From: Escherichia coli
GTDB lineage: Bacteria; Pseudomonadota; Gammaproteobacteria; Enterobacterales; Enterobacteriaceae
Assembly: GCF_029227855.1 (NCBI RefSeq)
Contig: NZ_CP074356.1
Length of the DNA: 64,000 nucleotides
Reading direction: 5' to 3' (one strand)
The notes beneath the pieces were generated by a model that worked only from the letters and a program-made list of their open reading frames with translations, had not been told where the DNA came from and ran no database searches. Made by a program: the position numbers and the translations under genes. Positions 9,186 through 56,577 of the stretch are shown one piece after another (the first letter of the stretch is position 1; each line of letters begins with the position of its first letter).

Positions 9186-10568
9186 TTATCCCACCAGCAT
9201 CCAGGTCGCCGGAACTGAGGCAATTAACAGCATGCCAATCAGCACCATTTCCTGACGATTCAGTACATTATCATGGGTATGCGTTTTACGCGCGTACAGG
9301 AAAACCAGCAGCCCCGGTGCATACAGAACAACGGATAACAGCAAGTGCATTGGACCAGAGGCGTACAATAACCATAAGCCATAAATGCAGGCACCGACAC
9401 CTACCGCTTTATGCAGTGGACGGGTTGCGATTTTCAGCAAGAACGCGCCGACCAGGAAATAGGGCACCAGAATCATTTCTGAGGCGATGGTCAGCAACGT
9501 GTTGTAATCGGAACCGGTCAGCCAGATGAGTACCAGACAAATTTGCACGCAGATGTTGGTCAACCACAGTGAGGCGGATGGCGCAGCTTGTGCGTTCTGG
9601 CGCGCAAAAATGCGCGGGAATGCTTTATGAGTGGCGGCCAGGAACGGAACTTCTGCCGCCATGATGGTCCAGCTTAAGTACGCGCCGCAAACGGAAACGA
9701 TCAAACCGGCAGCGATGATGATTTCGCCCCATGGTCCCATCATTTCCACCATCAGACCGGCCATTGACGGGTTACGAATTTCAGCCAGTTCAGGACGTGC
9801 CACCACGCCCAGCGAAAGCAGCGTTACCAGCAAGTAAACGCCCAGAGCGGAGAGAACCGCCAGCAGTGTCGCTTTGCCAACATCACGTTTATTACGCGCA
9901 CGCGCAGAAACAACCACGGCACCTTCCACACCAATGAAAACCCACAGGGTGATCAGCATGGTGTTTTTCACCTGTTCCCAAACGGGTACGCCAAGTGCAA
10001 GTCCGGTGAAGTCGAGCTTGAAGGTATCCAGTTTGAACATCATCATCGCCAACACAACAAACAGACCCAGCGGCAACAGTTTTGCCAGTGTTGCCACCAG
10101 GTTAATGCTGGCAGCGGTTTGCACCCCGCGCAGGATCAAAAAGTGAACAATCCACAATAAAGCCGATGCACCGACGATCGATTGCCAGGTATTACCATCG
10201 CCAAACAGGCGCAATTCCGGCGTGTCCGTAAAAAAGCTTAACGCGGAAAAAACGATCACCAGATAGGAGACGTTGGCGATGACCGCGCACAGCCAGTATC
10301 CCCATGCGGAACAAAAGCCGATTAGCTCGCCAAACCCTTCGCGGGCATAGGTAAAGATACCGCCGTCAAGTTCGGGACGAATGCGCGTGAGGATCAGCAT
10401 GGCAAAGGCCAGCAATAAAATGCCTGCGCCAGTAATACCCCAGCCGATGAGCAGTGCTGCCGGGCTGGCAACTGCCGCCATATTTTGCGGCAGACTGAAA
10501 ACACCCGCGCCCAGCATTGAGCTTAATACCAGCGCGGTGAGTGCGCTCAGTCCCAGTTTCTTTTCCAT
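9186..10568 (-). CDS. ydgI: APC-family amino acid transporter (putative arginine:ornithine antiporter), 460 aa
   Basis: ORF track 460 aa, about 12 hydrophobic helices; synteny. Confidence 0.92.
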   Translation of the reverse strand: MEKKLGLSALTALVLSSMLGAGVFSLPQNMAAVASPAALLIGWGITGAGILLLAFAMLILTRIRPELDGGIFTYAREGFGELIGFCSAWGYWLCAVIANVSYLVIVFSALSFFTDTPELRLFGDGNTWQSIVGASALLWIVHFLILRGVQTAASINLVATLAKLLPLGLFVVLAMMMFKLDTFKLDFTGLALGVPVWEQVKNTMLITLWVFIGVEGAVVVSARARNKRDVGKATLLAVLSALGVYLLVTLLSLGVVARPELAEIRNPSMAGLMVEMMGPWGEIIIAAGLIVSVCGAYLSWTIMAAEVPFLAATHKAFPRIFARQNAQAAPSASLWLTNICVQICLVLIWLTGSDYNTLLTIASEMILVPYFLVGAFLLKIATRPLHKAVGVGACIYGLWLLYASGPMHLLLSVVLYAPGLLVFLYARKTHTHDNVLNRQEMVLIGMLLIASVPATWMLVG

Positions 10569-10714
10569 CGATATCCAGTGATTAAAACGTGATAAGAAGA
10601 ATAAATATTAGGGCAAAACGCATAAAAATGGAGTTTGCCACTGAAGCGCGGGATTTTACGAAGAGATGTGTCTGCATGCAATGGTCGCGGGGAAATTTGT
10701 GACTAAAAATGCGA

Positions 10715-10735
10715 AAGGCGGCATCAAGCCGCCTT
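10715..10735 (-). terminator. putative Rho-independent terminator downstream of ydgH
   Basis: Perfect 8-bp inverted repeat aaggcggc-atcaa-gccgcctt; on the minus strand it is followed by a T-rich tract. Confidence 0.5.
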
Positions 10736-10753
10736 ATAGGAGTAACTGAATAG

Positions 10754-11698
10754 TTATTTATACAGATCTGCGCTGACGGTCAGGTTATTACCACGTTCCT
10801 GCCACTGGCGGGTGATGTGGTAATACTTAGCACCTTTCTTCGCGGCACGTTTCGCAACCTGATAGGAGACTTCGGTCATGTTGCCGTAGTTGCCAGAGAA
10901 TTTGATGCTGTCGAACGGGACCATCATCGCTGCGGTCGCTTTGTTCAGTTCTTCGACTTTAGTGCCATCCGGGAGCGTGACGGTGTAACGCCCGCCTTTT
11001 GATGACTGGGTTTCAAAGAAGCGACCGACTTCAGAACTTGGTGATGCGGTAGTCGCAACACCCGGGATCTCAACTTTCTTCGCGGCTTCGCCACCGGCAG
11101 CCAGAGCTGCACGTCCTGCTTCGGAATCTGCCGGGATCACATCCGGGCTCTGGACGATACGTTTCTTAGCATCTTTTTTATAGATGAATGCAGTAATACG
11201 CTGGTTGCCGCCCTGGTTGGAATCGATTTGACGAACGATGTAGAAAGAGTAGGCACCTTTCGCTTTTGCCGCTTTGGTGATGGCATCATTGACTTCTGGC
11301 TGGCTACGATAAAAGCCCTGGACGGTGACCGTGTCAAACGGTTCAATCAGAACGGCCTGATCTTTCGGCAGTTCGACAACTCCGTTAATTACGCGATTAC
11401 TTGTTTCTTCTGCTTTTTCAGCATCGGCTTTATAGAGGTCAGCGACCACACGCCAGTTACCGCTGTTACCAAAATCAGAAGTGTCGACAACATAAAAAGA
11501 GGCGGCACCTTCTTTATCTGCGCGACGAGAAACGGCTTTCACCGCTTCGCCAATAGCATTAAAACGACCGGTAACCACTACACGGTCAAAAGGTTTAACC
11601 GCTGCCGCTTGCTCCGGTGTCAGTTCTGTTGCTGCGTTAACGGAGAATGCCGTAGCAGAAAGCAGTGCCGACGCCAGGAGGGTGTTCTTAAGCTTCAT
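10754..11698 (-). CDS. ydgH: periplasmic DUF1471-repeat protein YdgH (314 aa)
   Basis: ORF track 314 aa with signal peptide; three internally repeated ~90-aa modules (..PFD.V.V.G.....E...A...A.A.GA.YY.I...). Confidence 0.92.
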   Translation of the reverse strand: MKLKNTLLASALLSATAFSVNAATELTPEQAAAVKPFDRVVVTGRFNAIGEAVKAVSRRADKEGAASFYVVDTSDFGNSGNWRVVADLYKADAEKAEETSNRVINGVVELPKDQAVLIEPFDTVTVQGFYRSQPEVNDAITKAAKAKGAYSFYIVRQIDSNQGGNQRITAFIYKKDAKKRIVQSPDVIPADSEAGRAALAAGGEAAKKVEIPGVATTASPSSEVGRFFETQSSKGGRYTVTLPDGTKVEELNKATAAMMVPFDSIKFSGNYGNMTEVSYQVAKRAAKKGAKYYHITRQWQERGNNLTVSADLYK

Positions 11699-12158
11699 AA
11701 AAATAATCCTTCGCCTTGCGCAAACCAGGTACTGGTATTGTTATTAACGAGAAACGTGGCTGATTATTGCATTTAAACGGTGTAACTGTCTGCGTCATTT
11801 TTCATATCACATTCCTTAAGCCAATTTTAATCCTGCTCAAATGACCGTCTATGCTTAAAAAACAGCCGTATCAGCATCAATACTACTGAAGCAACTGAAT
11901 TGTATAAGTTAATTTAATGTTAAGTAGTGATTCGTATCGGGGCGATGTCTCGTTTTACCTGACCGTCGAAGACAATTATCAGTCTTTATCCGGCGTTCTA
12001 AGGTGTTTATCCCACTATCACGGCTGAATCGTTAATATTTTGCGAGTTCACGCCGAAATACTGATTTTTGGCGCTAGATCACAGGCATAATTTTCAGTAC
12101 GTTATAGGGCGTTTGTTACTAATTTATTTTAACGGAGTAACATTTAGCTCGTACATGA

Positions 12159-46587: not shown

Positions 46588-47184
46588 ATGGTTGGTGTTA
46601 CTCAAAGGTCAGGGAATTACTCACGTAATGTGCAGGTGGTTGTCGATTCTAACTCTGTTGATATTATAAAGTCTCCATCGATTTTTATGGATCTTGTTGG
46701 TATTTTAGTTGATTCGAATGTTATTGATCCTCGTACAAACAATGACTACGAGCCATATGATATTGAGAATAAAATAGACTTCAATGATGTTATAAAACAT
46801 AGAGAACGTATTGAAGGGTTCTATCTATATTCTTCGATGATAGATAAAGCGTATGAAACATTAAATGAAAGTATGCCTACTGCTAAGGAAACGGCACTGA
46901 AAAGCATCAATTCACGATATCTTGATTGTCAAGGAGATTTATTGCTTAAACATAGAGAAGCGTATAAGAGCTGCAAGGATGCTCAGGAACGGAATAATTT
47001 AAAGATTCAATTGGTAAGAGAGTTTGCAGATTGGATAATAGACAGTGTAATAGAGCACATCATTAAGAAATGCTTAAATTCTCTTATGGCAATGAATTAC
47101 ACAAGCGAAGAAATCGAATGCCATGCTTCTTTTATCGTTTATCATGCATTCGTAGAGTGTAAGATTCTGGAAAAACCAATATGA
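46588..47184 (+). CDS. hypothetical protein (198 aa), second gene of the AT-rich cassette
   Basis: ATG 46588 with GAGG SD; stop overlaps the next start (ATGA); no motif I recognise. Confidence 0.65.
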   Translation: MVGVTQRSGNYSRNVQVVVDSNSVDIIKSPSIFMDLVGILVDSNVIDPRTNNDYEPYDIENKIDFNDVIKHRERIEGFYLYSSMIDKAYETLNESMPTAKETALKSINSRYLDCQGDLLLKHREAYKSCKDAQERNNLKIQLVREFADWIIDSVIEHIIKKCLNSLMAMNYTSEEIECHASFIVYHAFVECKILEKPI

Positions 47185-47417
47185 TTATCTCTGATGTAAC
47201 AAAACCAAGCCAAACCTTGTATTACCTGGGAGCTCGGTTATTAGAATGCATGAGTTCAAATGCTTATTCGTATGTTGATATTATAGACTTGTATAATGAA
47301 TTCAAATCTAAAAATAACAACTCTTCATTCACGCAATATATTTACACTTTAAATTGGCTATATTTATTAGGCCTGGTTGATGCTAACGAAAATGGAGATT
47401 TGATATTATGTTTTTGA
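47181..47417 (+). CDS. hypothetical small protein (78 aa), third gene of the AT-rich cassette
   Basis: ATG 47181 overlapping the upstream stop; 3' end overlaps the ATPase start by 10 nt. Confidence 0.6.
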   Translation: MIISDVTKPSQTLYYLGARLLECMSSNAYSYVDIIDLYNEFKSKNNNSSFTQYIYTLNWLYLLGLVDANENGDLILCF

Positions 47418-49132
47418 AACGGCTAATAGTCAGTTCTTTCAGGCTTGGAGTGATTCGTGATATCGAATTTCACATTGGCGTTAATTTGATTATTGACCGA
47501 AACACCTCCAGCAAAGAGCAAACTGGAAATGGTGTGGGAAAAACTACTGTATTAAGAGCTTTAGATTTTTGTTTTGGAGCAGAACAACTGAATTTTTATA
47601 CCGATCCTGAATTCAAGAAAGAAAATTCGGTTATAAAAAATTATTTGATAGAGAACGAGATTGAGTTTTGTTTAATTCTCACAAAAGATTTGAATAATAA
47701 AACTGCACCAGTAATAAAAATTAAGCGTAAAATTACATCTGAGACTAATAAAACGAAGGTTATAGCCTCAATAAATGAAGAGTCCTATACGAAGGCTAAA
47801 GATTTCAACGAGGCTTTAAAAAGAACATTATATCTTGATTCCGCGATAAAACCGACCATACGAGAGATTATGGGACGTGTTATTCGAAATACGCATGACA
47901 AGATGTCGAACGCATTAAAAACGATAAAAATGGGTTCTAATACACAATATGAAACGTTAAATCTGTTTATGTTTGGGTTCGGTAACTCACAGATTCTGGA
48001 TGAAAAACAGTCAGTGACTAAAGCCTATAAACTGGCGAAATCCGATTATGAAGTAATTACTCGCCATCGCTCAAAGAATGCTTTGGAACAAGCTATTGCA
48101 ATTATAAATAGAGATATTATAGCACAAGAAGAGTTAATTTCTAATTTTCAAGTGGCAGACTCTTATAATGATATGCTTGCTGAGTTAAATGAGTTAAAAA
48201 TTAAAATTAGTGAAGTTTCTATCACACTATCATCTTTGGAGTTTAAGCAAAAATTAAACGATAAGGCTATACTAGATCTGGAAAAAAGTCATGAAAATAT
48301 AAATACACTAGATCTACAGAAGTTGTACTTAGAAGCAACTGATCGGTTAGGTAACTTAAACAAAGAGTTTACTGAGCTACTTTCGTTTCATAATAAAATG
48401 CTTGTAAAAAAAGCTGAGTTTATTAGAAAACAAATGCAGCCAGTGCTGCAAGAAATTTCCAAATATAAAGATGAACTAAATAATTTATTGACTCAAGAAT
48501 CAGAGCTTTTAAAGAGTTTGTCTTCGCATGGGACATTGGCAGACCTGCAAATAATGCAAAAAAAATTAAATTCATTATTTGAAGAAAAAGGTGGGCTTGA
48601 AGCTGGACTACTTCAAATCCAAGAGATGGAGAACAACTTTAATATACTGAAAGCAAAGTTTAATGATGTGTCAGATAGATTAAAATCTAAACTTGACGAT
48701 TTTAACAAACGTCTTGCGCTATTCAATTCCTATTTTTCTTTATATACTAAAAAATTATATCAGGATGAATATATTCTTTCCTATAAAGATTCCTCCGGTT
48801 CTTTCGTTTTTACCATTGAACCTTTAGGAACTTTGCTCACATCAGGTAATCAGGGAGAAGGAAAAAAGAAAGCCCAGGTTGCCTCTTTAGATTTTGCCTA
48901 TTTATCTGTCCAGGAGTCTTTAGAAGCCAGAACACCACGTTTTATAGCTCATGATGGAATTGAGGCAATTCATGTAAATCAAATAAATAAGTTATTCGAG
49001 ATAGCTTCGGGGATTAATGGTCAATATATATTGGCTATTCTTAAAGACAAGTTGGAGAATATTGATCAAGACTTCATCAATAATAGTGTTGTGCTTGAGC
49101 TTGGGGAGGACGATAAGTTTTTTAGGCTTTAA
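47408..49132 (+). CDS. SMC/Rad50/ABC-type coiled-coil ATPase (574 aa), fourth gene of the AT-rich cassette
   Basis: N-terminal P-loop TGNGVGKTTVLRALDFCFG (RecF/SMC-type Walker A); ~300-aa heptad-rich central region; C-terminal TSGNQGEG (signature-like) followed by RFIAHDGIEAIH (Walker-B/D-loop-like); GGAG SD. Confidence 0.8.
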   Translation: MFLKRLIVSSFRLGVIRDIEFHIGVNLIIDRNTSSKEQTGNGVGKTTVLRALDFCFGAEQLNFYTDPEFKKENSVIKNYLIENEIEFCLILTKDLNNKTAPVIKIKRKITSETNKTKVIASINEESYTKAKDFNEALKRTLYLDSAIKPTIREIMGRVIRNTHDKMSNALKTIKMGSNTQYETLNLFMFGFGNSQILDEKQSVTKAYKLAKSDYEVITRHRSKNALEQAIAIINRDIIAQEELISNFQVADSYNDMLAELNELKIKISEVSITLSSLEFKQKLNDKAILDLEKSHENINTLDLQKLYLEATDRLGNLNKEFTELLSFHNKMLVKKAEFIRKQMQPVLQEISKYKDELNNLLTQESELLKSLSSHGTLADLQIMQKKLNSLFEEKGGLEAGLLQIQEMENNFNILKAKFNDVSDRLKSKLDDFNKRLALFNSYFSLYTKKLYQDEYILSYKDSSGSFVFTIEPLGTLLTSGNQGEGKKKAQVASLDFAYLSVQESLEARTPRFIAHDGIEAIHVNQINKLFEIASGINGQYILAILKDKLENIDQDFINNSVVLELGEDDKFFRL

Positions 49133-49366: not shown

Positions 49367-49577
49367 TTTCATATTGGCGAGATAACGGGAGTTAAGTAGA
49401 ATGCCTGCGGGTGCTTGAGGCTATCTGCCTCGGGCATGAACACCAACGGCAGATAGAGAAAAGCCCCAGTTAACATTACGCGTCCTGCAAGACGCTTAAC
49501 ATTAATCTGAGGCCAATTTCATGCTAGACACATGTAGGTTAGCCTCTTACGTGCCGAAAGGCAAGGAGAAGCAGGCT

Positions 49578-49733
49578 ATGAAGCAGCAAAAGGCGATGTT
49601 AATCGCCCTGATCGTCATCTGTTTAACCGTCATAGTGACGGCACTGGTAACGAGGAAAGACCTCTGCGAGGTACGAATCCGAACCGGCCAGACGGAGGTC
49701 GCTGTCTTCACAGCTTACGAACCTGAGGAGTAA
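49578..49733 (+). CDS. hokD: Hok/Gef-family membrane toxin HokD (51 aa)
   Basis: ATG 49578 preceded by AAGGAGAAG; MKQQKAMLIALIVICLTVIVTALVTRKDLCEVRIRTGQTEVAVFTAYEPEE; ORF track shows an in-frame upstream extension from 49521. Confidence 0.86.
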   Translation: MKQQKAMLIALIVICLTVIVTALVTRKDLCEVRIRTGQTEVAVFTAYEPEE

Positions 49734-51999: not shown

Positions 52000-52060
52000 A
52001 AAAGTTGCTGTCTGATTGTCATTAGTCTAACATTTTAAATGTTGGAATCGCAACGTAGTT
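52000..52060 (+). promoter_or_regulatory. putative late promoter / qut region (pR'-like), not precisely mapped
   Basis: AT-rich segment with TTGTCA and TAAATG/TATCAT candidate hexamers between the Q stop and a strong terminator. Confidence 0.3.
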
Positions 52061-52081
52061 ATTATCATATAACAGCTTGTT

Positions 52082-52109
52082 TCCTGATTTAGCCAGCCTC
52101 CCCAAAGGC
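52082..52109 (+). terminator. Rho-independent terminator (tR'-like) downstream of Q
   Basis: ccagcc-tccccaaa-ggctgg hairpin followed by TTTTTTT. Confidence 0.65.
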
Positions 52110-52147
52110 TGGTTTTTTTCTAATAAGTATCATTTCGGGTAGGGATT

Positions 52148-52672
52148 TTATTGTTTAACCCATAATAATTCATTGACATTGAATCCCAACTTTTGAGCGG
52201 TTCGCACATAGTCTGCTTTTACTTTATCTGGAATAGTTGGGGTCCTTGCCAGAATCCATAGGTATTCTCTGTTCGAACCACTAACAAGAGCATACTTATA
52301 CTCATCATCCAGTTTGATTACATTATAGCCACCATAGAAGGGGCCAAAAAACGAAACCTTCAACGCTGCAGTTTTAGTATCTCCAGTAAAGTATGCTTTA
52401 CCTTCGCTCTCGCTCCATTTATTTTTCGTTGGATCGTATCCACGGTTAAGTACACGAATCCCTCCGTCGTTCCGTTTTCCATAAGTAGCGCTGACCTGTT
52501 CCAGACCACGTTCGAACCGGTTCTCGAGGCGAGCTATTTCATACCATTTTCCGAGGTAGCGGTTGGCGTCAAAATTTGTAATCGGCTGCACACCTTTAGG
52601 TGGTGTCGGGGCCTTACATGCTATAAGAGTGAAAGAGAGTGCAATGCCAGTCAACACAGGCCATAACTTCAT
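52148..52672 (-). CDS. outer-membrane lipocalin Blc homologue (about 174 aa), prophage cargo
   Basis: ORF 52148..52678 (-); ATG at 52670-52672 with AGGA SD; lipobox LIAC; lipocalin motifs NFDANRYLGKWYEIARL, YNVIKLDDEYKYALVSG; AT-rich. Confidence 0.85.
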   Translation of the reverse strand: MKLWPVLTGIALSFTLIACKAPTPPKGVQPITNFDANRYLGKWYEIARLENRFERGLEQVSATYGKRNDGGIRVLNRGYDPTKNKWSESEGKAYFTGDTKTAALKVSFFGPFYGGYNVIKLDDEYKYALVSGSNREYLWILARTPTIPDKVKADYVRTAQKLGFNVNELLWVKQ

Positions 52673-52864: not shown

Positions 52865-53824
52865 ATGATAAAAAAACCTGTGATTGGAATCAGCGGTTGT
52901 TTGGCCGGTTCTGCTGTTCGTTTTGATGGTGGTCACAAAAGAGCTGACTTTTTAATGGACAAATTAGTGGAATGGGTAACATTCAGACCAGTATGTCCGG
53001 AAATGGCTATAGGGCTGCCAGTTCCGCGTCCTGCTCTACGTCTTGTGCGCTCGAAGCAAGGAAATATACGGATGTGTTTCAGCCACGACCAGAATGAGGA
53101 TGTGACAGAGAGAATGACAGAGTTTAGTCGTTCTTATATGCACAAATTAAAGGATGTATCGGGGTTTGTGGTTTGTGCTAAATCTCCCAGCTGTGGCATG
53201 GAGCGCGTGCGTGTCTATGATGAAAATGGTAATCGAGGTCGTAAAGATGGAGTGGGACTATTTACGAGCACTTTGATGGAAAAGTTTTCCTGGCTACCGG
53301 TTGAAGAGGATGGGCGATTACATGATCCAGTGCTTCGTGAGAATTTTGTTGAAAGAGTTTTTGCTTTGCATGAGCTCAATCACCTTTACAAGGAGAAATT
53401 ATCAAGAAGAGAGTTATTAGCTTTTCATAGTCGTTATAAGCTTCAGTTGTTGGCGCATAGTCAGGCAGGCTATAAAGATATGGGACCATTTGTGGCTGCA
53501 ATACACGAGTGGGCGGACCTTGAATCATACTTTGAGGTGTATCGTGATAAGCTGATGGCGATTCTCAGAAAACCTGCATCACGTAAAAATCACACGAATG
53601 TGCTGATGCATATACAGGGGTATTTTAGTAATTACTTAAGTACACGCCAGCGTAAAGAGTTGACCGAGGTTATACTTAACTATCGCTTTGGCACATTGCC
53701 TCTTCTTGCGCCGTTGACTCTGCTGAAGCATTATCTGGGTGAGTATCCTAATGATTACTTGCTTACACAGAATTACTTCGATCCCTATCCGGAAGAACTG
53801 GCTCTAAGACTGATGGTGAATTAA
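52865..53824 (+). CDS. two-domain DUF523 (TudS-like Fe-S thio-nucleobase desulfidase) plus DUF1722 protein, RudS-like (319 aa)
   Basis: ORF track 319 aa; GGGGGAGG SD; N-terminal GISGCLAGSAVRFDGGHK with further Cys at FRPVCPEM and VVCAKSPSCGM (three-Cys Fe-S pattern); C-terminal half YbgA-like. Confidence 0.75.
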   Translation: MIKKPVIGISGCLAGSAVRFDGGHKRADFLMDKLVEWVTFRPVCPEMAIGLPVPRPALRLVRSKQGNIRMCFSHDQNEDVTERMTEFSRSYMHKLKDVSGFVVCAKSPSCGMERVRVYDENGNRGRKDGVGLFTSTLMEKFSWLPVEEDGRLHDPVLRENFVERVFALHELNHLYKEKLSRRELLAFHSRYKLQLLAHSQAGYKDMGPFVAAIHEWADLESYFEVYRDKLMAILRKPASRKNHTNVLMHIQGYFSNYLSTRQRKELTEVILNYRFGTLPLLAPLTLLKHYLGEYPNDYLLTQNYFDPYPEELALRLMVN

Positions 53825-54230
53825 CTGTATGCGATATCATCTGAAAGTGATGAGTTCCTGTATGCAGGATATTTACAATCGTAAAAACTACACTATGATA
53901 CCCATAGTGTCAGTTTGTATAAAAATCCTGTTCACGCTGAAGAAAACATTGAGATGCAATTTAATGTTGGTAAACATACCAGCCCCAAAAGATTTTATTC
54001 AATCTGTTTTTATATGAAGATATTTCAAGTGAATATTAAGAGTATATAATATTATTATTGCACGCAGCTATTATAATATAACAGATTAGTTTAATGATTT
54101 GTTTTTTGTGAGTTAAACACATGGTTTTATAGTTGTGATGCAATGAGATTTTCCTTATTGTTGAACTGGCGAATATTGATTTTCCACCTATACTTACCTG
54201 GTGTAACCCCAGTGATATCAGGTGGATAAT

Positions 54231-54944
54231 ATGCCATACATATGTTCTGTCATTTTGGTGTTGAACTCGTTTGGTGTCCGAATTGGTAAAGAAGATATTT
54301 TGTTTAAAAAAGGAAGTGCTGTCCTCATCGAATACAATTTAAAAGATCTTTTTTCGTCAAATACAGATCATCTAATGATCGTAGATGTTGAGGAGAAAAC
54401 AGTTAATGATTTCTTTAAAAACTACACACTCTCACCTTTTTCTGTAAGAAGGTTTTATCCGGCATACTTGATAGTAGAATGTGAAGGTTTTTCTTTGTTA
54501 AAGAACTTGGTTGCATGCTTGAATTGTGATAGCAAAACCGTGGATGTGGTTAGAAATCAAATATCACTTGCATGTCTTGCTGTCTTATCTTCAGAGAAAA
54601 TAGTGCAAAGTTTTTTGTTCGGAAGTCTTAATAGCTTAGGTTGTAAAGTTAAGGCTATTATTCACTCGGATATCTCAGCGTCATGGAGACTTTGTGATAT
54701 ATCTTCAAGATTATATATGAGCGAGAGTTTGTTAAAAAGAAAATTAAAAGACGAAGGGGTATCGTTTAGTAGATTAATTCTTGAAGAACGAATGATGATG
54801 GCGCAAAGATTATTAATTTACAGTAACCATACTGTCGGCAAGGTGGCGGGAATATGCGGGTATGACAATGCATCATATTTTGTAAGTGTTTTTAGAAGAT
54901 ATTTTGGTGTGCCTCCGCACCAATATTTATCAAGATTTTCTTAG
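54231..54944 (+). CDS. AraC/XylS-family transcriptional regulator (about 237 aa), prophage cargo
   Basis: ORF 54222..54944 (GTG); ATG at 54231; C-terminal HTH ...HTVGKVAGICGYDNASYFVSVFRRYFGVPPHQY; AT-rich with long AT-rich upstream region. Confidence 0.85.
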   Translation: MPYICSVILVLNSFGVRIGKEDILFKKGSAVLIEYNLKDLFSSNTDHLMIVDVEEKTVNDFFKNYTLSPFSVRRFYPAYLIVECEGFSLLKNLVACLNCDSKTVDVVRNQISLACLAVLSSEKIVQSFLFGSLNSLGCKVKAIIHSDISASWRLCDISSRLYMSESLLKRKLKDEGVSFSRLILEERMMMAQRLLIYSNHTVGKVAGICGYDNASYFVSVFRRYFGVPPHQYLSRFS

Positions 54945-55135
54945 AAGATATGATGTGATGGCATTTTATAAAGTTGTTTTTTTGAAGTGTAAGATTATAC
55001 GATATTTTTAGCTACGCCAGAATAATTGCTGGCGTTTTTCTTTTTGAATAGATGTTCGGGCCTTACGCTAATGTAATTTTTTTCCTTCTTCGAACCAAAC
55101 CGTGTACACCATCCGTTATCTGCGGAGGTGAGGCT

Positions 55136-55351
55136 ATGAAATCCATGGATAAGTTAACAACGGGCATCGCCTACGGCACCTCTGCAGGCAGTGCTGGCTA
55201 CTGGTTTTTACAGTTGCTCGATAAAGTCACGCCCTCACAGTGGGCGGCAATAGGTGTATTGGGTAGTCTGGTATTTGGCATGCTGACGTATCTGACTAAC
55301 CTTTATTTCAAGATTAAAGAAGACAGGCGTAAGGCTGAGAGAGGAGAGTAA
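55136..55351 (+). CDS. essQ: phage holin (71 aa)
   Basis: ORF 55052..55351; ATG 55136 after GGAGGTGAGG; [30 protein letters not shown]...[13 protein letters not shown]. Confidence 0.88.
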
Positions 55352-55355
55352 TCCA

Positions 55356-55700
55356 ATGACTCAAGTATACGAACTGGTTGTGAAAGGAGTCCGTAATTTT
55401 GAGAATAAAGTTGCGGTAACTTTAGCCTTACAGGACAAAGAACGCTTTGACGGTGAGATTTTTGACCTTGATATCACTATGGATCGTGTTGAAGGTGCTG
55501 CACTGGAGTTTTATGAGGCAGCAGCCAGAAGGAGAATCAGACAGGTGTTCTTGGATGTTGCTGCCGGGTTATGTGAAGGGGATGAGCAGTCGCCGGAAAA
55601 GCGCCCCATAATTTTAGAGGCGCAGAATGTGTGGATAACCTACAAAGGAAAGCTACCAGGAAGAATTACTGGTTATCTGAAGACTCCGCCGGAATGTTAA
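55356..55700 (+). CDS. hypothetical protein between holin and endolysin (114 aa)
   Basis: ATG 55356 after GAGGAGAG, 5 nt after the holin stop. Confidence 0.5.
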   Translation: MTQVYELVVKGVRNFENKVAVTLALQDKERFDGEIFDLDITMDRVEGAALEFYEAAARRRIRQVFLDVAAGLCEGDEQSPEKRPIILEAQNVWITYKGKLPGRITGYLKTPPEC

Positions 55701-55938
55701 TTTTAACAGCATATTTCTCTTCCAGTAATGCCACCAGCCACTTGAAGGAATTTTGTTGTTCCTGGGACCATTTGGGGCTGTGTGATTCAAGCTGGAGCGA
55801 TGCCAGTGTTGGTTGCATTTGTTCCCTGGGAATTGACAATGCCAGATATGAAAATGCGACAGTAAGGGCATTAACATCATCCCGAAGCCTGGAAATGCAG
55901 TCGAGCAACTCCTGAAGAGAAATGGTGTTATTGTCCAT
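55666..55938 (-). CDS. hypothetical protein, antisense to the lysis cassette (90 aa)
   Basis: Minus-strand ATG at 55936-55938 preceded by AAGAGGA; 3' end overlaps the convergent 114-aa ORF by 35 nt. Confidence 0.45.
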   Translation of the reverse strand: MDNNTISLQELLDCISRLRDDVNALTVAFSYLALSIPREQMQPTLASLQLESHSPKWSQEQQNSFKWLVALLEEKYAVKINIPAESSDNQ

Positions 55939-56043: not shown

Positions 56044-56577
56044 ATGAACGTAAAAGTCAAATACGGCCTGTCGGCTGCCGTTCTGGCGCTGATTGGTGCT
56101 GGTGCATCTGCTCCCCAGATACTTGACCAGTTTCTGGACGAAAAAGAAGGTAACCACACAATGGCATACCGTGATGGTTCCGGCATATGGACCATCTGTC
56201 GGGGTGCCACAGTGGTGGATGGAAAACCCGTTTTTCCCAATATGAAACTGTCGAAGGAAAAATGCGACCAGGTTAACGCTATTGAGCGTGATAAGGCTCT
56301 GGCATGGGTGGAGCGCAATATTAAAGTACCACTGACCGAACCACAAAAAGCGGGTATCGCGTCATTTTGTCCCTATAACATTGGCCCCGGTAAGTGTTTT
56401 CCGTCGACGTTTTATAAACGGCTGAATGCTGGTGATCGTAAAGGTGCATGCGAGGCGATTCGCTGGTGGATTAAGGACAGGGGGCGTGATTGCCGCATTC
56501 GTTCAAATAACTGTTACGGTCAGGTTATTCGTCGTGATCAGGAGAGCGCGTTAGTGTGCTGGGGGATCGACAGATAA
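56044..56577 (+). CDS. rrrQ: SAR-type endolysin (lysozyme), 177 aa
   Basis: ORF track 177 aa; N-terminal signal-anchor-release segment LSAAVLALIGAGASAP; motifs shared with lambdoid lysozymes (WTICRG, LNAGDRKGACEAIRWW, CWG). Confidence 0.82.
   Translation: MNVKVKYGLSAAVLALIGAGASAPQILDQFLDEKEGNHTMAYRDGSGIWTICRGATVVDGKPVFPNMKLSKEKCDQVNAIERDKALAWVERNIKVPLTEPQKAGIASFCPYNIGPGKCFPSTFYKRLNAGDRKGACEAIRWWIKDRGRDCRIRSNNCYGQVIRRDQESALVCWGIDR

Follow-up and report, generated by a model that had tools for sequence, protein, structure and literature searches.

What does an AT-rich gene for an AraC-type regulator, lodged between the late-gene antiterminator and the lysis genes of a lambdoid prophage, do for the Escherichia coli strain that carries it? 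The question is raised by a window of 64,000 nucleotides (nt) of contig NZ_CP074356.1 (RefSeq assembly GCF_029227855.1), which is the whole stretch of DNA analysed here, and by an earlier reading of the sequence, made without database searches and called below the sequence-only reading, in which the gene had been described as a horizontally acquired regulator with possible chromosomal targets. The analysis of the gene, of its relatives and of its surroundings places its product, by sequence, in the YdeO/GadW/AppY/Psr/PatE clade. The regulator is the third gene of a conserved cassette encoding a Blc-like lipocalin, a TudS/YbgA-like protein and the AraC-like protein, and not a lone cargo gene. 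The explanation which best accounts for the whole, and to which we assign a probability of about 0.55, is that of a clade activator carried in a lysogenic-conversion cassette, expressed at a low level in the lysogen, reached by Q-dependent read-through after induction, and directed at acid-fitness targets of the host.

The gene is real and intact. A plus-strand open reading frame (ORF) of 240 amino acids (aa), running from GTG 54222 to 54944, had been claimed; the frame was recovered as described, while the GTG start, which falls within the Shine-Dalgarno sequence, was probably set 9 nt too early. The start was taken as ATG 54231, because AGGTGG is found 5 nt upstream of it and because the block formed by the Shine-Dalgarno sequence and this ATG is invariant, being unchanged in all alleles and in P0016, a homologue with 60% identity. 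ATG 54231, giving a product of 237 aa, is also the RefSeq start for the identical gene in other genomes, and it is probably the true one. Both the 240-aa and the 237-aa forms are present in the protein collection, in a shared cluster of 1532 members named either 'AraC family transcriptional regulator' or 'helix-turn-helix domain-containing protein'. The AraC-type C-terminal helix-turn-helix (HTH) domain recognized in the sequence-only reading was matched by Pfam HTH_18 over residues 161-237 (E 1.5e-17, 64 bits for a cut-off of 33.6) and by HTH_AraC (E 3.6e-13), also above its curated cut-off. An ORF of 237 codons at 34% GC with such domain E-values is far beyond chance.

The strong AT-richness attributed to the gene and to some 400 bp of upstream DNA was equally borne out. 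The GC content of the gene is 34.3%, a value as low being found in only 4.5% of 714-bp windows, and that of the 406-bp spacer in front of it is 31.3%, a level as low being found in only 1.1% of 406-bp windows; the window as a whole stands at 48.2%. The gene is thus compositionally foreign. Values of 34.3% and 31.3% against 48-50% agree with the high AT content expected of an H-NS-silenced xenogeneic gene, and on this AT content H-NS silencing of the regulator gene is plausible.

The sequence-only reading had also proposed a comparison with the AraC-like prophage regulators of enterohaemorrhagic E. coli, which revealed homology over the full length to both types. By BLASTP the product shares 48% identity with PatE (E 1e-76), 39% with a Psr-type protein of EDL933, 34% with GadW, 31% with AppY and 30% with YdeO of K-12, and the match to GadX (41%) covers the DNA-binding domain only. 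Comparators were extracted from RefSeq records; the Psr comparator came from an EDL933 prophage other than CP-933N, and PatE was represented by Sakai ECs_0287, since no other gene annotated as 'transcription regulator' in prophage Sp1 has an AraC-like size; we take Sp1 to be OI-8/CP-933H. A review places patE in OI-8/CP-933H. The resemblance to PatE is uneven, with identities of 66% for the DNA-binding domain and 35% for the regulatory domain, and the first recognition helix (SESLLKRKLKxEG) differs from that of PatE at one position.

The best NCBIfam model was that of YdeO (NF007407), aligned end to end (residues 4-234 to positions 1-229 of 253). Orthology to YdeO was rejected, the score being 115.5 bits for a cut-off of 348, as was orthology to GadX (89.7 bits for the NF007432 cut-off of 500, in the DNA-binding domain region only). 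PHROG 1450, a family of 'unknown function', matched the regulator end to end (E 8e-98). The full-length family is small, since a search of 1.84 billion cluster representatives returned only 10 clusters at E 1e-30 or better. In a neighbour-joining tree, the query alleles grouped with P0016 and PatE, Psr came next, and the YdeO, GadW and AppY branches followed. Taken together, these sequence comparisons define a distinct orthologue group, sister to PatE, and the regulator is an orthologue of none of the named proteins of the clade. Full-length homology to PatE and Psr, combined with a location on a prophage, puts the regulator in the PatE/Psr class.

A confident AlphaFold model built from a 38-sequence alignment (mean predicted local distance difference test score, pLDDT, 91.7) consists of a cupin-type regulatory domain (residues ~1-135) followed by a GadX-like DNA-binding domain (~136-237). 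Both AraC/XylS-family features are present, namely a C-terminal domain of about 100 aa with two HTH motifs and an N-terminal cupin-type regulatory and dimerisation domain, and the protein is predicted to be a canonical two-domain AraC/XylS activator. The nearest full-length solved folds are those of the fatty-acid-binding regulators Rns, CsvR and ToxT.

The gene lies, as the sequence-only reading had it, in the late region of a prophage, between the Q antiterminator and an S21-type holin gene and on the same strand as both (Table 1). This position between Q/pR'-tR' and the lysis genes is that of a moron. The cassette is flanked by the tR'-like terminator on one side and by the regulator's own terminator on the other, an arrangement which had been missed in the earlier reading. 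Six chromosomal contexts and phage IdasGreatGrand share an identical succession of Q, terminator, blc (minus strand), ybgA, regulator, terminator and holin. Eleven records of Lambda_ev/1H12-type temperate phages match blc-ybgA, each with the regulator about 200 bp downstream. The same gene order is found in E. coli B REL606 (98% nt identity) and in DLP12-like and other lambdoid prophages with alleles 89% and 82% identical at the nt level. At a threshold of at least 80% nt identity, the regulator is present in about 970-1030 of 5426 complete E. coli genomes (~18%), always on the chromosome, and the blc-ybgA part in 1150. Carriers range from E. coli B/BL21 and the commensal HS to isolated temperate phages of the gut. 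Among the matches listed, O157:H7 genomes have no orthologue, their best match being patE (73% over 220 bp), and only PatE and Psr are present there. In E. coli B (both REL606 and BL21), an IS3 element splits ybgA; in REL606 this is seen at 9805-12025 of locus L001.

Such a fixed context raises the possibility of a local regulator of the cassette, which would control the divergent blc/ybgA promoters, itself, or both, perhaps in response to lipids, and would have little effect on the host. This is the main alternative, and we regard it as rather unlikely. In its favour, the regulator follows blc-ybgA in all 6 chromosomal loci inspected and in 12 of 12 phage records matching blc-ybgA, and the genome counts given above are similar (1150 for blc-ybgA, ~1030 for the regulator). 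The Blc-like lipocalin would be expected to bind lipids, and a protein whose closest folds are those of fatty-acid-binding regulators is encoded beside it. Against it, the closest relatives PatE, Psr and P0016 occur without blc or ybgA, and the blc-ybgA spacer and the DNA upstream of the regulator have no repeat in common beyond short matches at chance level. Moreover, when the window is compared with one of the other loci (L015), the regulator is 89% identical and blc and ybgA are 99% identical, so that a recombination breakpoint can be placed between ybgA and the regulator; the two modules are thus exchanged independently.

The alleles also bear on whether the gene has any current function. 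They fall into types with 97%, 85% and 76% protein identity, that is with a divergence of up to 24%, and the frame is intact in 5 of the 5 alleles compared. The ratio of nonsynonymous to synonymous substitutions (dN/dS) is 0.19-0.21 at dS of 0.33-0.61, which demonstrates purifying selection on the regulator. These values contradict the idea of a dead passenger, silent and merely kept by its linkage to the lysis region, which we hold to be very improbable. AT-rich foreign DNA is often silenced, and disruption by insertion sequences does occur, as with IS2 in strain AR145.2; apart from this IS2 case, RefSeq gives an intact coding sequence in all matches listed, and the Shine-Dalgarno sequence and the proximal upstream region are conserved. 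In AR145.2 (L018, 4010-6076), where IS2 splits the regulator gene, RefSeq calls the N-terminal fragment 'PH domain-containing protein'.

The question of when the gene is transcribed leads to the DNA behind Q. The Q protein, named 'antiterminator Q family protein' by RefSeq in L007, an annotated identical copy of the prophage, shows 78-82% identity (tblastn) to the Q of Stx1a and Stx2a phages. The segment and hairpin that follow it are homologous to those found after Q in the Stx2a phage F403, upstream of the tRNA genes and stx2, and are conserved in all alleles. A terminator scan gave a 9-bp stem with 5 GC pairs, followed by TTTTTTT. By this homology, the segment would work as a pR' leader ending in tR'. 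Read-through by Q-modified polymerase would be expected after induction, because the regulator gene runs in the direction of Q and the lysis genes, with a terminator on either side.

The spacer contains a second version of the Q-proximal part of this leader (52053-52078). None of 300 dinucleotide shuffles reached its score of 22 matches (mean best 16.9, SD 0.8), and a gapped alignment extends the similarity to ~70 nt (52040-52122 against 54050-54125). The 21-nt terminator hairpin is precisely missing from the second copy, which contains a consensus TATAAT at 54072-54077. The 82% allele lacks this copy, which is therefore not essential. Recombination may have left it as a scar of an earlier arrangement in which the regulator immediately followed Q, an arrangement still found for psr and P0016; another possibility is a co-opted promoter region without terminator.

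These findings could also fit a lytic-cycle factor, made mainly from the Q-antiterminated late transcript and affecting the transcription of phage or host genes during the last minutes before lysis rather than in the lysogen. Its location on the strand of Q and the lysis genes, downstream of a terminator homologous to that of the Stx phages, the leader copy upstream of the gene and the carriage of the cassette on viable phages all agree with such a role. We nonetheless judge it quite unlikely: a conserved upstream block and a terminator belong to the gene itself, it is intact and under purifying selection in defective prophages incapable of completing a lytic cycle, such as Qin of E. coli B, and the characterised relatives act in lysogens (PMC10877973).

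When alleles are compared, the spacer shows conservation in a distal block (53870-53925) and over its proximal ~110 bp, with indels in the middle. The proximal block holds TATACTTA (54189-54196) and is kept even in P0016, which directly follows a different Q. The perfect inverted repeat of the distal block is retained, with few substitutions, in every allele aligned and is a candidate for either the ybgA terminator or a protein-binding site. Two small spacer ORFs (62 and 44 aa) were rejected as genes because indels in other alleles break both. An Rfam scan of 49-58 kb gave no RNA family in the spacer, the only match being sok. No similarity was detectable between the upstream region of the regulator and the patE loci (L003, L006) or the psr loci (L002, L011).

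What the regulator controls can be approached through its relatives. Both PatE and PsrB activate gadE as well as AR2 genes and bind at the hdeA promoter, and PsrA and PsrB repress type III secretion via GadE and YhiF (PMC10877973, PMC8565820). The PatE/PsrB site of the hdeA promoter spans -132 to -45. AppY directly activates gadE (PMC10057817). YdeO belongs to an EvgAS > YdeO > GadE cascade (PMC4222967), and AppY, YdeO and GadW all regulate the acid-fitness island (PMC10057817; PMC4222967). Regulators of the PatE/Psr type bind AT-rich DNA and counter H-NS (PMC10877973, PMC8565820), a behaviour which the AT-rich composition of the present locus fits. Because every characterised member of the clade converges on the acid-fitness island, and because most of the DNA-reading surface of PatE is shared, activation of host acid-fitness promoters of the gadE/hdeA type is the function best supported by sequence, at roughly even odds.

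We infer the targets, the silencing by H-NS and the Q-dependent read-through, and would combine them as follows. The regulator travels as the last member of a three-gene lysogenic-conversion cassette, an insertion that separates Q/tR' from the holin gene in lambdoid phages. In the lysogen, the regulator would be expressed at a low level from its own upstream region, probably bound by H-NS. After induction, Q-modified RNA polymerase would pass tR' as well as the gene's own terminator, and the regulator would join the late transcript, as stx does. The protein would dimerise through its cupin-type N-terminal domain and bind AT-rich sites with its two HTH motifs and, like PatE, PsrB, AppY and YdeO, would most likely activate the gadE and hdeAB promoters and raise acid resistance.

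Several points weigh against this model. An identity of 48% to PatE, with 35% in the regulatory domain, is no guarantee of the same regulon, and the second recognition helix is only 67% identical to that of PatE. Strict linkage with blc and ybgA would also fit a regulator in the service of the cassette. Finally, a sigma-70 promoter scan found 12 sites for 10.6 expected from shuffled sequence, hence no excess. A more elaborate scheme, which we consider quite unlikely, would have the regulator run from the leader duplicate (54062-54087 and its flanks) as a co-opted promoter without terminator, and act as a lipid-responsive switch of the Rns/ToxT type linking the lipocalin and TudS/YbgA genes to the acid-fitness island. 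If true, the cassette would be a module complete in itself for envelope and acid stress, which lambdoid phages have carried into about one fifth of E. coli.

Table 1. Coordinates in the window of the regulator gene, its cassette and the adjoining prophage late genes.
Feature	Position	Strand	Evidence
Late-gene antiterminator Q, 125 aa	51615..51992	+	PHROG 79 'anti-termination protein Q-like', E 3.4e-49
Late-leader segment with a tR'-like intrinsic terminator at its end (hairpin 52091-52114, T-run to 52122)	52040..52122	+	
Blc-like outer-membrane lipocalin, cassette gene 1	52148..52672	-	NCBIfam Blc subfamily, 312 bits (cut-off 267); Pfam Lipocalin_2, E 2.7e-43
TudS (2-thiouracil desulfurase, DUF523) fused to DUF1722, 'YbgA family', cassette gene 2	52865..53824	+	PF04463, E 5.5e-40; PF08349, E 9.4e-40
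AT-rich spacer, presumed promoter/regulatory region of the regulator	53825..54230	.	31.3% GC
Perfect 8-bp inverted repeat ACACTATG-ATACC-CATAGTGT, 66 nt 3' of the ybgA stop	53890..53910	.	
Copy of the Q-proximal late-leader segment (52053-52078), without terminator hairpin	54062..54087	+	22/26 positions identical
AraC/XylS-family regulator gene, 237 aa	54231..54944	+	Pfam, NCBIfam, PHROG, BLASTP, model
Intrinsic terminator 3' of the regulator gene, ACGCCAG-loop-CTGGCGT then TTTTCTTTTT	55014..55045	+	Terminator scan
S21-type (class II) holin, lysis cassette gene 1	55136..55351	+	Pfam Phage_holin_2_1, E 5e-35; RefSeq essD
YdfR	55356-55700	+	
Phage lysozyme (endolysin)	56044-56577	+	
Rz	downstream of 56577	+	

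The prophage occupies the right part of the window. It is lambdoid, complete-looking and located at the Qin site, and extends from an integrase gene adjoining rspB to gpJ. In L007, the order is integrase, excisionase, exonuclease, dicB, CI/Cro-like repressors, a defence-like block of three genes, hokD/sok, rem, ydfU, Q, the cargo genes, the lysis cassette, terminase, head genes and tail genes. The three-gene block of the early region (46588-49132) has a GC content of 30-35% and is annotated by RefSeq as 'ABC-three component system' with a DUF2326 protein; its large protein matches the PADLOC candidate PDC-M68B (E 1e-41), and the block is probably anti-phage defence cargo. The three cassette proteins gave no defence-system match with PADLOC; the TudS/YbgA-like protein matches PHROG 3275 (E 5e-225). 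The sok antisense RNA (49409-49583; Rfam RF01794, 115 bits) lies beside hokD and forms with it a type I toxin-antitoxin pair inside the prophage. On the minus strand, a 90-aa ORF (55666-55938) is placed antisense between ydfR and the lysozyme gene; RefSeq calls it 'hypothetical protein' (21867-22139 of L007), and no family is assigned to it.

The literature search brought up no paper dealing with this orthologue group or with the lipocalin/YbgA/AraC cassette. RefSeq already carries the gene under a generic annotation, and the family is a known one. A specialist would find nothing surprising in it; as a target for experiments it is a reasonable choice, given how common it is, E. coli B and commensals included, and given its constant setting of three genes. 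PatE, PsrA/B and AppY are the best examples of phage genes that rewire a core bacterial stress regulon and have so far been studied in O157:H7 and K-12. The orthologue group described here is at least as widespread as these, being present in ~18% of complete E. coli genomes, and its tight linkage to a lipocalin and a TudS/YbgA gene provides a simple three-gene system. If gadE and hdeA are indeed its targets, differences in acid resistance between strains, laboratory B strains included, would have a phage-encoded part.

Among known systems, PatE comes closest. Both proteins have an N-terminal M..CSV motif, and both genes are AT-rich (35% GC for patE and 34% here) and prophage-borne. In contrast, patE lies outside the slot between Q and the holin gene, its neighbours being tail-fibre and pin genes together with a fragment of an IS, and blc-ybgA is missing beside it; for PatE, experiments have shown activation of gadE and hdeA (PMC10877973), whereas the present regulator is known from its sequence. 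Genes of the PatE type, 47% identical to the query, were also observed in phage mEp332 (L021, 44454-45206) and in L006 (19102-19845), at the tail-fibre end beside a transposase fragment. The tail-fibre end of lambdoid genomes is a second and different cargo site for regulators of this type.

In lambdoid prophages, genes of the PsrA/PsrB type have a position equivalent to that of the regulator gene: a Q-type antiterminator lies directly upstream of them, and the lysis genes lie downstream. They differ in forming a separate branch of the tree, in being less AT-rich (44% GC) and in being associated with tRNA genes, effector loci and PerC/Pch regulators instead of blc-ybgA. P0016 resembles Psr in its location directly behind a Q-type antiterminator and in having neither blc nor ybgA. 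The two Psr-type genes of O157:H7 were located in lambdoid prophages other than CP-933N/Sp6, bounded by a Q-like gene of the DUF1133 type on one side and by tRNA/lysis genes on the other (L011), with a PerC/Pch gene 3' of the lysis genes. Two reviews place psrA (z1789) in OI-50/CP-933N; no AraC-like gene was found by tblastn in the CP-933N/Sp6 regions (Sakai 1.54-1.59 Mb and EDL933 1.62-1.705 Mb; L008-L010). This mismatch may reflect the known prophage misassembly in the original EDL933 sequence.

AppY of the DLP12 prophage, YdeO and GadW, all of E. coli K-12, belong to the same clade, have the same two-domain architecture and share 30-34% full-length identity with the regulator, but occupy other genomic positions. 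Rns, CsvR and ToxT are more distant, with only ~20% identity, and the regulatory domain is shorter here (~135 aa). With respect to stx and other cargo inserted between Q and S, the present cargo differs in being a regulator cassette and not a toxin, and its Q-dependent expression is deduced from gene order. The insertion slot is nevertheless the same, the Q proteins are ~80% identical and the tR'-like hairpins are homologous.
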